From a virus, in the IMG/VR virus record IMGVR_UViG_3300045988_044263: DNA of 17,643 nucleotides, one strand, 5' to 3'. The first letter of the stretch is position 1, and every line of letters starts with the position of its first letter. The notes under the pieces were generated by a model that was not told where the DNA came from, ran no database searches, and saw nothing but the letters and a program-made list of their open reading frames with translations. Below are positions 3,210 to 7,233 of this stretch, piece after piece. Made by a program: the position numbers and the translations under genes.

Positions 3210-4670
3210 ATGCGAGAGCGTCGAACGGCGGTAACGGACGGTGCAACACTATTGGCGGATGACGGCGTGGAACCATTGACGGCGACGGCCGTTATCCGTC
3301 TCACCATGCTCGACCATCATACGCGCGTATGGTGTGCTCACGGATGGCAGGACATTAAGCCCATAGCCGCCGAACTGTTGGCACGACTCCCGTTGCAACC
3401 GAACCCAGCCAAGGACGGTGTATGGGGCACGTTCAACATTCGCGGGCACTTCTACAGTTTTCGCGTGCGCATGGGCGGTACCACCGTGGATTTTCTGGAC
3501 GTGCGCAATGTCACACGTGACGATGGCCTGAATGTTTCACGTGAAACGTTCGGCGGCACGGACGATTTGGAAACCACGTGGAACGTTGCACAGGAATGCG
3601 CCGCCCTGAACCTCAGGGGCACGACCATAGCATCAATGGCAATGACCGACTACATTGATGGCGATTACGCCGGATTCAAACGCCATTTCCCGCCATTGGA
3701 CAGGGGCGACTATCACCGGATGCGCCCCGCCTACTATGGGGCGATAGTGCACAGCAAGCCGGGCGAATACCGGAATTGCCGGAGTTGGGACGTGAACAGT
3801 CTCTATCCGAGCATCATGCACGATGCGCCAATGCCCGTAGGCTCACCCATATGGTATGACGGCGAATATCGACACGACAATGATTATCCGCTACATATCG
3901 ATGTTATCGCGTTTGACGCGCGATTGAAAACGGGAAAAACGGCGACGCTCACCAATATCCTGCCTGTATGGGGGTATGAGGGCGAACGCTTGGATAGCAC
4001 GCTCGGCGTCGTTACCATGCCCGTTACGGATGTGGATTGGGAAACGCTGACCGAAAACTATGACATCCACGTGTGGGAGCACGTGGGCGGCTGGAAGTTC
4101 CGCAAATCACACGGGTTATATTGTGCATACGTGGACAAATGGTTTCACGTGAAACAGGCCGCAACCGGAGAGCGTAGGCAGATAGCGAAACTGCTGCTGA
4201 ACTCGCTGGTGGGGAAATTCGGTGCCTCGCTCTACCGTCCCATGTTGCATCCGAAGCCGTCCGTGGATGGTGGCGTGGATTTTACCGTGGACAAACCCGA
4301 GTCGGCCAGCAGTCTGGCGTGGCTGCCGACCGCCGCATTTATCAACGCCTGCGGACGGCGAATACTATCCCGCGCAATGAACGCGAACGCCGACCGCGTA
4401 CTTTACGCCGACACCGACGGCGTGATATTGGAAGGGTTGGACACACCCTTTGGTATCGAAACGGATGACCGGAAACTAGGGGCGTGGAAAAACGACCATA
4501 CCTATGAGAGGCTCCGTATTCTCGGCAATCGTAAATATTGCGGTGTGGAGACGAGTGGCGATACGGTAATGCGTTTGAGTGGCGTGCATCGTGCCGCTCC
4601 TGTCCTCTATGATGAGTTTCTGCCGGGGTCACGTCATCTCAATGACGACGGCCATGCTTTCGTGCTATAA
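3210..4670 (+). CDS. Family-B, protein-primed DNA polymerase (phi29 gp2-like), 486 aa
   Basis: Recognised motifs:
- Motif A: SWDVNSLYPSIM (3789-3812 core).
- DYPLHI block, identical to phi29.
- Motif B: AKLLLNSLVGKFG (4188-4223).
- A TPR2-length insertion.
- Motif C: LYADTDGV (4404-4421).
- RKY near the C-terminus.

The start is placed at ATG 3210, after AAAAAGGA (3196-3203). The ORF track extends it to 3162. Confidence 0.93.
   Translation: MRERRTAVTDGATLLADDGVEPLTATAVIRLTMLDHHTRVWCAHGWQDIKPIAAELLARLPLQPNPAKDGVWGTFNIRGHFYSFRVRMGGTTVDFLDVRNVTRDDGLNVSRETFGGTDDLETTWNVAQECAALNLRGTTIASMAMTDYIDGDYAGFKRHFPPLDRGDYHRMRPAYYGAIVHSKPGEYRNCRSWDVNSLYPSIMHDAPMPVGSPIWYDGEYRHDNDYPLHIDVIAFDARLKTGKTATLTNILPVWGYEGERLDSTLGVVTMPVTDVDWETLTENYDIHVWEHVGGWKFRKSHGLYCAYVDKWFHVKQAATGERRQIAKLLLNSLVGKFGASLYRPMLHPKPSVDGGVDFTVDKPESASSLAWLPTAAFINACGRRILSRAMNANADRVLYADTDGVILEGLDTPFGIETDDRKLGAWKNDHTYERLRILGNRKYCGVETSGDTVMRLSGVHRAAPVLYDEFLPGSRHLNDDGHAFVL
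3534..3547. repeat. Copy 1 of the 14-nt perfect palindrome GTTTCACGTGAAAC
   Basis: Read directly from the sequence. It lies inside the pol CDS, with codon phase gtt tca cgt gaa acg. The flanks extend it to the near-palindrome AATGTTTCACGTGAAACGTT. Confidence 0.9.
4142..4155. repeat. Copy 2 of the 14-nt perfect palindrome GTTTCACGTGAAAC
   Basis: Read directly from the sequence. It lies inside the pol CDS in a different codon phase (ttt cac gtg aaa cag). Confidence 0.9.
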
Positions 4671-4671
4671 T
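4663..4671 (+). promoter_or_regulatory. Extended -10 consensus TGCTATAAT overlapping the pol stop codon
   Basis: Exact TGNTATAAT match at the start of the 181-nt non-coding gap. The same 9-mer recurs at 15729. Confidence 0.4.
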
Positions 4672-4677
4672 GGTCGG

Positions 4678-4845
4678 TAGCGGGATGTGCGTCCCAAGTC
4701 GATTCGATGGCCCGACCGTAAGGCAAGTCGGTAAGGCGATTCGGTCGGATGTAGACGTGCGTAGCCAGCGCCCAGCGACGGCGAGGGAACCCGCACAGCC
4801 CAGCAACCCGGCATGACGGCGTGATTGCTGTCATGCCACTTACTT
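4678..4845 (+). ncRNA. Candidate structured non-coding RNA (pRNA-like?), regulatory leader, or early/late switch region
   Basis: There is no credible CDS between pol and the scaffold gene. The stretch is bounded by a promoter-like element (4663-4671) and a strong hairpin (4810-4837). It contains internal direct repeats and alternative pairings. The boundaries are guesses. Confidence 0.25.
4810..4837 (+). terminator. Strong hairpin (terminator-like) before the late genes
   Basis: GGCATGACGGCG / TGAT / TGCTGTCATGCC forms 12 bp: 8 perfect pairs, then 4 more of which 2 are G.U. It is followed by CACTTACTTT, a weak U-tract. Confidence 0.45.
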
Positions 4846-4857
4846 TAAGAGGTGATT

Positions 4858-5199
4858 ATGGACGACACCGAAAACGATGACAAGCCGGACGCCACGCCCG
4901 ACATCAAGCCGGACGCCAACGCCGCCGACAATACGCCGAACCCGGAGCCTGAAACGCAGGATGACGGCGAACCGGAAGACGCTGGCGACGACAAGAACGC
5001 CGACATGGCCAACCGTCTCAGCGCTCTGGAAGCGACCGTGGCCGAACTCTCCAAGACCATTGAAGAGATGCGCGACGCCGCCGCTGACCATGTGCTGAAC
5101 GATGGCCCGGACGGCGACACGACGCCGGACGCCACGGAAATGACCGATGATGACTATAACGGGACCTATAGTACATTCGATGACCTGTATGAAGACTAA
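4858..5199 (+). CDS. Putative head scaffolding protein (113 aa, very acidic)
   Basis: AAGAGG (4847-4852) precedes ATG 4858; the ORF track starts at GTG 4852. The protein has a D/E/P/T-rich N-terminal half and a helical segment (ANRLSALEATVAELSKTIEEMRDAAA). It sits directly upstream of the major capsid gene, as phi29 gp7 does. Confidence 0.55.
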   Translation: MDDTENDDKPDATPDIKPDANAADNTPNPEPETQDDGEPEDAGDDKNADMANRLSALEATVAELSKTIEEMRDAAADHVLNDGPDGDTTPDATEMTDDDYNGTYSTFDDLYED

Positions 5200-5220
5200 T
5201 AATTAGGAGGAATAACTATC

Positions 5221-6957: not shown

Positions 6958-6985
6958 GAGAGGGTAGCCGGTTGGCTACCTTCTC
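6958..6985 (+). other. Stem-loop immediately after the capsid gene (12-bp stem, GGTT loop)
   Basis: GAGAGGGTAGCC / GGTT / GGCTACCTTCTC, with one G.U pair. No U-tract follows. Confidence 0.6.
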
Positions 6986-7007
6986 TCACGGCGAGATGCA
7001 ATACAAG

Positions 7008-7043
7008 GCCCGGAGCGCAAGCCACGTGAGCACTCCGGGCTTT
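7008..7043 (+). terminator. Terminator-like hairpin
   Basis: GCCCGGAG (7008-7015) pairs with CTCCGGGC (7033-7040) across a 17-nt loop. It is followed by TTTGTC. Confidence 0.4.
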
Positions 7044-7060
7044 GTCATACCGGAGGTTGG

Positions 7061-7188
7061 ATGATGATTGATGACGCGAACCCTTGGTGGACAATACCGG
7101 CCTAGTCGCTGGAGTGGCCGCCGGTTCCGCCAAGCTGACGGCCGCGCTGTTCGGTGTCGGCTGTCAGGGCACTGTGACAGTCGCCTAA
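7061..7188 (+). pseudogene. Decayed partial duplicate of the capsid Big_2 C-terminus
   Basis: - Frame of 7075-7188 reads REPLVDNTGLVAGVAAGSAKLTAALFGVGCQGTVTVA*. It aligns without gaps to the capsid C-terminus ...ATVSESGVVGGVKEGSSVVTATLFGVSGEKSVPVTT*.
- ATGATTGATGAC (7064-7075) matches the capsid ATGATTGACGGC (6775-6786).
- Between these blocks there is a frame change and a deletion of about 17 codons.
- Stops lie just upstream (7027, 7069, 7072). Confidence 0.7.
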
Positions 7189-7203
7189 TCTGCGATATAA
7201 TAA

Positions 7204-7233
7204 AAGGGAGTGTTTCACGTGAAACACTCCCTT
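7204..7233. terminator. 30-nt perfect palindrome (contains copy 3 of GTTTCACGTGAAAC at 7212-7225); terminator-like
   Basis: AAGGGAGTGTTTCAC|GTGAAACACTCCCTT has perfect 15-nt arms and is followed by CTTTAT. It lies between the Big_2 relic and the tail-knob start. TATAAT at 7196-7201 lies just upstream. Confidence 0.6.

Follow-up and report, generated by a model that had tools for sequence, protein, structure and literature searches.

Host-type parS sequences on the linear genome of a phi29-like phage without a recognizable ParB

Introduction

What is a perfect 14-nt palindrome doing three times on a viral genome of 17,643 bp, in two different codon phases of one gene and again at the center of a longer palindrome in a spacer? 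The genome in question is IMG/VR virus record IMGVR_UViG_3300045988_044263, and the whole stretch analyzed here, at its full length of 17,643 bp, is referred to below as the window. A preliminary description, made from the letters alone, had drawn attention to the palindrome, GTTTCACGTGAAAC, without recognizing in it any known bacterial operator consensus, and had suggested as possible roles the site of a dimeric DNA-binding protein, an RNA hairpin, or a recombination or nicking site.

In bacteria, parS is the 16-bp centromere sequence to which the host protein ParB binds as a dimer. The palindrome does in fact have a known bacterial counterpart, as it is the textbook chromosomal parS (published consensus, PMC7022226 Table 1). 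Among the suggested roles, that of a site for a dimeric DNA-binding protein is the one that stands, in the form of a parS site for ParB dimers.

Results

The palindrome is repeated beyond chance and in different codon phases

The three copies are exact (positions 3534 to 3547, 4142 to 4155, and 7212 to 7225), and the window contains no additional site with two or fewer mismatches to GTTTCACGTGAAAC. In 200 dinucleotide-preserving shuffles of the window, the mean number of sites with at most two mismatches was 0.12, and none of the shuffled sequences (0/200) held three or more, so that the copy number is above chance. A Poisson estimate with uniform composition puts the chance of at least three exact copies at ~5e-14.

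Copies 1 and 2 are located within the gene for a protein-primed family B DNA polymerase (positions 3162 to 4670, plus strand; PF03175, 6.4e-35; phrog_1907) and, as had been described, are read in different phases. Copy 1 runs from codon position 1 (AAT GTT TCA CGT GAA ACG, NVSRET), and copy 2 runs from codon position 3 (TGG TTT CAC GTG AAA CAG, WFHVKQ), about 12 residues upstream of a Kx3NSxYG-like motif of the polymerase. Copy 3 is the center of a perfect 30-nt palindrome (positions 7204 to 7233, plus strand), 19 nt 5′ of the tail knob gene, the ATG of which is at position 7252. Two 15-nt stretches extend the likeness into the flanks, TGTTTCACGTGAAAC being common to copies 1 and 3 and GTTTCACGTGAAACA to copies 2 and 3. 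The presence of the repeat in two coding phases and in noncoding contexts agrees with the view of the preliminary description that it is a signal at the DNA level and not a repeated peptide. The further impression that CACGTG cores are generally frequent did not hold up: there are 13 in the window against 8.0 expected, 11 of the 200 shuffles reached 13, and 3 of the 13 are the motif itself.

By sequence, the palindromes are host-type parS sites

The published consensus of chromosomal parS is TGTTNCACGTGAAACA in Bacillus subtilis and Corynebacterium glutamicum, and parS reads GTTTCACGTGAAAC in Mycobacterium smegmatis and TGTTTCACGTGAAACA in Hyphomonas (PMC7022226 Table 1). A consensus scan of the window gave a perfect match of 16/16 to the palindromic parS for copy 3 (TGTTTCACGTGAAACA, positions 7211 to 7226) and a match of 15/16 for both copy 1 (TGTTTCACGTGAAACG, positions 3533 to 3548, codons N-V-S-R-E-T) and copy 2 (GGTTTCACGTGAAACA, positions 4141 to 4156, codons W-F-H-V-K-Q), the cores of which are the 14-nt palindromes. 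Judged by sequence, all three palindromes are parS sites of the host type, to which the chromosomal partition protein ParB (Spo0J) binds. A full-text literature search for TTTCACGTGAAA pointed in the same direction, the matches listed being papers on ParB and parS or on chromosome organization.

Phage phi29 served as the positive control. The same scan retrieved four TGTTTCACGTGGAACA sites, each with one mismatch to the palindrome, and one match with three mismatches. According to PMC2731898, which cites Meijer et al. (2005), phi29 has five parS sites, and Spo0J helps to segregate the phage genome into the prespore. The four best sites of phi29 are distributed over genes 10, 15, and 17 and a position just before terminator TD1. 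The site at positions 17243 to 17258 of phi29 (L089) immediately follows the stop of gene 16 and precedes the bidirectional terminator TD1, as annotated, by 4 nt, which echoes the parS-in-terminator arrangement of the window. For two other host-factor sites the window gave negative results: the Noc-binding site ATTTCCCGGGAAAT had only two matches, each with three mismatches, which is the chance level, and the two Spo0A boxes (TGTCGAA; 2.74 expected) are both inside the CHAP gene and not at early or late promoters.

The sites recur at five syntenic positions in related phages

Relatives of the window were collected by a capsid protein scan, which yielded 80 related IMG/VR loci with capsid proteins of 89 to 94% amino acid identity; their polymerase genes are 80 to 95% identical at the nucleotide level and align end to end. 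The exact 14-mer is present in zero to four copies per related locus. It recurs in these phages at five syntenic positions, counted here with variation allowed at the N position of the consensus. Two of these are in the polymerase gene, near position 3534 (55 loci) and near position 4142 (57 loci). The third is in the hairpin after the capsid gene, near position 7212 (type A, 32 loci), the fourth is inside an alternative allele of the tail gene, near position 7380 (type B, 29 loci), and the fifth is in the spacer before the CHAP gene, near position 13150 (11 loci). Together, the five positions span two coding phases, two unrelated noncoding flanks, and a second tail allele. At least one site is present in 57 of the 61 near-complete relatives and at least two in 52 of them, and a sister clade with 61% connector identity retains the first polymerase site and the tail gene site. 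The sites are sequence-identical to parS, occur far beyond chance, and are maintained as DNA.

Types A and B are mutually exclusive, no locus having both, and they associate with two N-terminal alleles of the tail protein, ...RFESPQKQ... and ...RFVSRETQ.... The window has allele 1 of the tail knob (gp9-like) gene (positions 7252 to 9501, plus strand), without an internal parS. In allele 2, carried by relatives, parS is formed by the codons V-S-R-E-T about 123 to 129 nt after the ATG. Since types A and B are tied to separate tail alleles, each allele brings parS to the beginning of the late region in a different way. The flanks of the type B site and of the fifth site are nonpalindromic.

At the fifth position, comparison with the relatives reveals that the window retains a decayed relic (GTTCCACACGAACC, positions 13146 to 13159, four mismatches to the core) in the spacer 5′ of the CHAP domain gene. 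In 11 relatives this place is occupied by an intact GTTTCACGTGAAAC, followed by the same downstream hairpin as in the window. This G+C-rich hairpin of 12 bp (ATACCCCGCTCG...CGGGCGGGGTAT, positions 13160 to 13189) is directly 3′ of the relic and about 10 nt before the CHAP ATG. The 61-nt segment used to test it folds at −24.4 kcal/mol, and the hairpin is kept in the relatives, with a mosaic upstream flank.

Two further observations concern the clade as a whole. The cluster of connector proteins nearest to the window (P0001) has 3,810 member sequences, which makes the clade very common in public sequencing runs. One relative (L240) has four parS sites on a contig of 21.4 kb from NCBI assembly GCA_001292545.1, which exceeds one genome unit.

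Constraint on the two sites within the polymerase gene

Both polymerase sites make use of minority codons, with GTT, TCA, and CGT at site 1 accounting for 0.17, 0.16, and 0.20 of their respective families, and the joint codon usage probabilities are 0.0028 (site 1) and 0.037 (site 2). Compared with conserved codons of matched degeneracy in the rest of the gene, those within the polymerase sites vary less at the third position (p = 0.039 and 0.11 for the individual sites, 0.014 combined). The most common variant of site 2, GTTCCACGTGAAAC, found in 13 genomes of the polymerase alignment, differs precisely at the consensus N position. At both polymerase positions, relatives without parS (BadAztec1, BD811P1/2, BP1, Pize, Anjali, phi29, and one metagenomic relative of 46% identity) have other residues between conserved anchors, which means that the sites arose in variable parts of the protein and were kept thereafter. 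Covariation of the third positions that flank copy 1 (AAT/AAC with ACA/ACG) was uninformative because the counts are too unbalanced.

Copy 3 occupies the apex of a terminator-like hairpin

The spacer that holds copy 3 separates the gene for a phi29-type major capsid protein (positions 5221 to 6951, plus strand; PF25622, 1.3e-86) from the tail knob gene. RNA folding of the 30-nt palindrome gives a hairpin of −21.1 kcal/mol (z = −5.6) that has an A-tract, a 13-bp stem, and a T-rich tail, with parS at its apex. The sequence of this tail in the window is TTCTTTAT; tails in relatives reach T8. A stable G+C-containing stem-loop followed by a run of T's downstream of a gene is the anatomy of an intrinsic terminator, here after the highly expressed capsid gene, and the element is therefore described as terminator-like.

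Among the relatives, the spacer between capsid and tail genes ranges from 61 to 307 nt, and the parS core is always 39 to 47 nt before the tail ATG; in relatives with short spacers (61 to 67 nt), the core at the apex starts 16 to 20 nt past the capsid stop. In the 32 relatives that bear the hairpin, the core is intact or varies at most at the N position, and the flanking stem covaries, for example as AAAGGAGT...ACTCCTTT in L056. Variants of the outer stem include AAGGGAG, AGGGGAG, AAAGGAG...CTCCTTT, and GGGGGAG. Because the outer stem varies and covaries around a fixed parS apex, the structure and the apex sequence are under separate constraint. Copy 1 can also form a hairpin, of 12 bp and −18.2 kcal/mol. 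In the minimum-energy fold of copy 2 the hairpin is not formed, and an RNA hairpin is therefore not the common denominator of the three copies, contrary to one of the roles suggested initially. For another, that of a recombination or nicking site, no support for a nicking site was found.

A promoter-like sequence, GTGACA-16-TATAAT, is present at positions 7174 to 7201 and ends 2 nt before the palindrome. An interpretation of copy 3 as a promoter-operator was not adopted, as the same GATATAAT also stands after the capsid stop, where it precedes an unrelated hairpin, and as relatives with short spacers have too little upstream spacer for a −35 element.

Two more hairpins follow the capsid stop, at positions 6958 to 6985 and 7010 to 7038, and both are kept in relatives with covarying stems. 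The fold of the first has an energy of −22.3 kcal/mol, and upstream of this hairpin stands the same GATATAAT that precedes the parS hairpin; the second contains CACGTG. The segment from position 6995 to 7091 is homologous to the capsid-tail spacer of relatives together with the initial 30 nt of the alternative tail allele (MIDDANP...), with a 1-nt deletion, and is therefore a stub left by module exchange. This stub accounts for the length of the spacer in the window, which is 301 nt rather than 61 to 118 nt.

Perfect parS is enriched in other phi29-like lineages

At least 120 IMG/VR contigs contain the perfect parS 16-mer. The control, a palindromic 14-mer scrambled at matched composition, is by chance expected to be 16 times more common, but it was found in only 28 contigs and always as a single copy. 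The parS-bearing contigs are a sample of unknown ordering, and the proportions given here refer to the matches listed. Among the 120 contigs listed, 21 are phi29-like, against none of the 28 control contigs (Fisher p = 0.008). Only 1 of these 21 belongs to the clade of the window; the other 20, among the matches listed, represent different lineages with 21 to 46% protein identity to the window and G+C contents of 32 to 49%, and several of them have two to four sites. Perfect parS is thus strongly enriched in phi29-like lineages beyond the clade of the window.

The arrangement of the sites in these other lineages varies. Three phi29-like loci (L104, L140, and L161) have close pairs of parS sites 24 to 42 nt apart, as at positions 5526/5552 and 12131/12155 of L104, and several lineages have parS sites between the polymerase and capsid modules. 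Dense arrays of three to five perfect parS sites, each spanning less than 1 kb, occur on three IMG/VR contigs that are not phi29-like (L112, L152, and L164); these contigs could be plasmid-like phages or, alternatively, origin regions of hosts that were binned as viral. Targeted literature searches retrieved no report of host parS on a virulent phage beyond the phi29 group in Bacillus, and a 2024 review of phi29-like phages, in which 2,115 genomes are listed, makes no mention of parS, Spo0J, or ParB. The motif itself is well known; what is new is its host context here and its breadth across phi29-like phages.

Genome organization and probable host

The window is a complete linear genome with perfect inverted terminal repeats of 315 bp (positions 1 to 315 and 17329 to 17643), far longer than the 6-bp repeats of phi29. 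Its gene content identifies the phage, at the level of sequence, as a phi29-like, protein-primed linear podophage. Scans against Pfam and PHROGs show a phi29-like gene order with every large gene on the plus strand. The first half of this order consists of a phi29-type single-stranded DNA-binding protein (SSB), an open reading frame (ORF) of 314 amino acids at the position of the terminal protein, the protein-primed PolB, the phi29-type capsid protein, and the gp9-like tail knob. The connector, the lower collar, a CHAP hydrolase, the gp16 packaging ATPase, a holin, and a GH25-LysM endolysin follow in the second half. Four early ORFs (positions 218 to 577, 522 to 815, 809 to 1327, and 1340 to 1657) had no family match in these scans. 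None of the 20 ORFs scanned against Pfam and PHROGs matched ParB, ParA, or any other partition family; with no recognizable ParB encoded in the window, any ParB that acts on the sites must be derived from the host.

A megablast search with the complete window matched none of 50,697 phage records, and an exact-sequence look-up of the capsid protein retrieved no record. By capsid protein, the nearest isolates are Bifidobacterium phages (37 to 44% identity), followed by phi29-like phages of Curtobacterium and Arthrobacter. For the endolysin, a locus in a Bifidobacterium phasiani genome shows 68% identity, and the best phage matches, at 56%, are again Bifidobacterium phages. Because the nearest capsid isolates and the relatives of the endolysin both point there, the host is most likely a Bifidobacterium. 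Such a host would probably provide the partner protein, as ParABS has been reported in all Actinobacteria (PMC4255298), and a Bifidobacterium longum strain is among 12 gut bacteria that all have ParABS homologues and 1 to 10 parS sites (PMC10197239).

Several other features of the window deserve mention. Its first kilobase has an extreme GC and AT skew, and positions 45 to 157 are nearly pure G+T on the plus strand, with degenerate TTGTGTT heptad repeats. The spacer between the genes for the SSB and the terminal protein has a 26-nt palindrome (GGCAACGTCCCTATAGGGATGTTGCC, positions 2154 to 2179) followed by a 25-nt tandem duplication (positions 2200 to 2248). At the junction of the CHAP and gp16 ATPase genes, positions 14416 to 14453 form a near-perfect palindrome of 38 nt, with 19-nt arms that are 89% complementary and no spacer.

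Discussion

The reading that we favor, with a probability of about 0.75, is that the three sites function as loading sites for host ParB on a Bifidobacterium-type phi29-like phage that has no ParB of its own, probably for the positioning or segregation of the phage genome. The binding of ParB and its spreading are steps that we infer from established ParB biology, and the benefit to the phage from the precedent of phi29. After injection, dimers of host ParB would nucleate at the three sites, close as a cytidine triphosphate-dependent clamp, and spread over much of the 17.6-kb genome, so that a partition complex resembling that at the host origin region would form. This complex would couple the phage DNA to ParA, to SMC, and, in Actinobacteria, to the DivIVA-marked pole. 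By analogy with phi29, the likely benefit would be the positioning and inheritance of a nonintegrating genome when lytic growth is delayed, that is, in a carrier state in a nonsporulating host. At the apex of the terminator-like hairpin, copy 3 could serve two purposes with one palindrome.

Like chromosomal parS, the sites of the window are palindromic, lie several within a few kilobases, match the consensus at 16/16 or 15/16 positions, tolerate variation in relatives at the N position of the consensus, and are conserved as DNA irrespective of reading frame or context. Unlike chromosomal parS, they are found on a 17.6-kb linear phage genome and not beside a chromosomal origin, with two copies in coding sequence, one in a terminator-like hairpin, and no ParA or ParB encoded nearby. 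There is also a likeness to phi29, both being virulent phi29-like podophages with a terminal protein, no partition genes, and several host-type parS sites that are located inside genes and beside a terminator. However, the host here is most likely a nonsporulating Bifidobacterium and Spo0A boxes are not enriched; moreover, the positions of the sites are not homologous between the two phages, and those of phi29 carry a GGAAC/GTTCC variant, whereas the window has the perfect palindrome. With the parABS cassettes of P1 and N15, the window would share the coupling of an extrachromosomal phage genome to a ParB-parS complex that is proposed here. Those phages are temperate, however, and have their own ParA and ParB with element-specific parS, whereas the window encodes neither protein and uses the parS of the host chromosome.

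A number of points weigh against a role in recruiting host ParB for the benefit of the phage. Bifidobacterium does not sporulate, and the entrapment of phi29 in spores, the only benefit demonstrated, is therefore inapplicable in that form. ParB clamps are lost from free DNA ends by sliding, a loss that the terminal protein of this linear genome may or may not block. The assignment of the host is itself drawn from capsid and endolysin similarity. Cultured relatives that infect Bifidobacterium, Curtobacterium, and Arthrobacter have no parS by the same scan, and 4 of the 61 near-complete relatives have only relics with one or two mismatches at the usual places; given these cultured relatives and the few clade members that lost the sites, parS is dispensable for the lytic cycle. 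The relatives are phylogenetically nonindependent and come mostly from one metagenome collection, and the significance of the synonymous-site test is no more than moderate.

It is possible, although we consider it doubtful, that host ParB does bind but that the phage profits from it by taking over or regulating its host. Hundreds of replicating genomes with two to four parS sites each could titrate ParB away from the host origin and so disturb segregation, SMC loading, and the control of the division site. In favor of this, mutations in parB strongly affect segregation and division in Actinobacteria (PMC7022226 Table 1), and ParB interacts with DivIVA and FtsZ (PMC4255298); the phi29 precedent, however, is one of segregation and not of titration. 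Alternatively, ParB bound at the sites or spreading from them could damp late gene transcription. Copy 3 does come directly after the promoter-like sequence at positions 7174 to 7201, and the type A, type B, and fifth positions are at or near starts of late genes, but TATAAT is also part of the conserved sequence that follows the capsid stop before the unrelated hairpin (positions 6952 to 6988), and both polymerase sites are away from any gene start. An operator for a dimeric regulator encoded by the phage itself, its identity with parS being a coincidence or mimicry, is improbable. Several early ORFs without family assignment could encode such a protein, and palindromic operators of 14 to 16 bp are typical of phage repressors. 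A 16/16 match to a universal host consensus is nevertheless hard to obtain by coincidence, the same 16-mer occurs, among the matches listed, in phi29-like lineages whose core proteins are only 21 to 46% identical and whose G+C content ranges from 32 to 49%, and two of the three sites are deep inside a gene, far from promoters. The sites of phi29, moreover, are reported as Spo0J-binding (PMC2731898).

Very improbable, in our estimation, is selection for a hairpin in RNA or single-stranded DNA (a terminator, a processing site, or a stability element) with an incidental likeness to parS. The stability of the hairpins at copies 3 and 1 and the covariation of the stem outside the core speak for a structural role. 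For such a role any complementary apex would do, yet the 14- to 16-nt core is essentially fixed and the outer stem varies; the neighboring capsid terminator hairpin (positions 6958 to 6985) has an unrelated and variable sequence, the hairpin is lacking from the minimum-energy fold of copy 2, and the tail gene and fifth sites have nonpalindromic flanks. Hardly credible, finally, is a chance repeat or recombination relic, in which the copies would be functionless junction sequences at module boundaries. The hairpin, tail gene, and fifth sites do sit at mosaic boundaries, with alternative tail alleles and variable upstream flanks, and the window retains a stub of the other tail allele at positions 7065 to 7091. 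Against this stand the chance probability given above, the location of both polymerase sites in a gene that can be aligned over its full length among relatives, the identity of the sequence with a known protein-binding site, and its recurrence in unrelated phi29-like lineages.

The recruitment of host ParB through parS may, more tentatively, be a general and repeatedly evolved strategy of phi29-like phages, including those of nonsporulating gut bacteria. The clade of the window is abundant in the gut, probably on nonsporulating Bifidobacterium, and yet keeps two to four perfect parS sites as DNA. If host ParB is recruited to them, a virulent, linear genome capped by terminal protein would gain plasmid-like positioning and inheritance without any phage partition gene, a simple and testable means for "lytic" gut phages to take up a position, be inherited, or lie dormant in dividing cells. 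The ParB-parS interaction would also offer a natural handle for imaging these phage genomes, and the strategy could help to explain the persistence of such phages in the gut.

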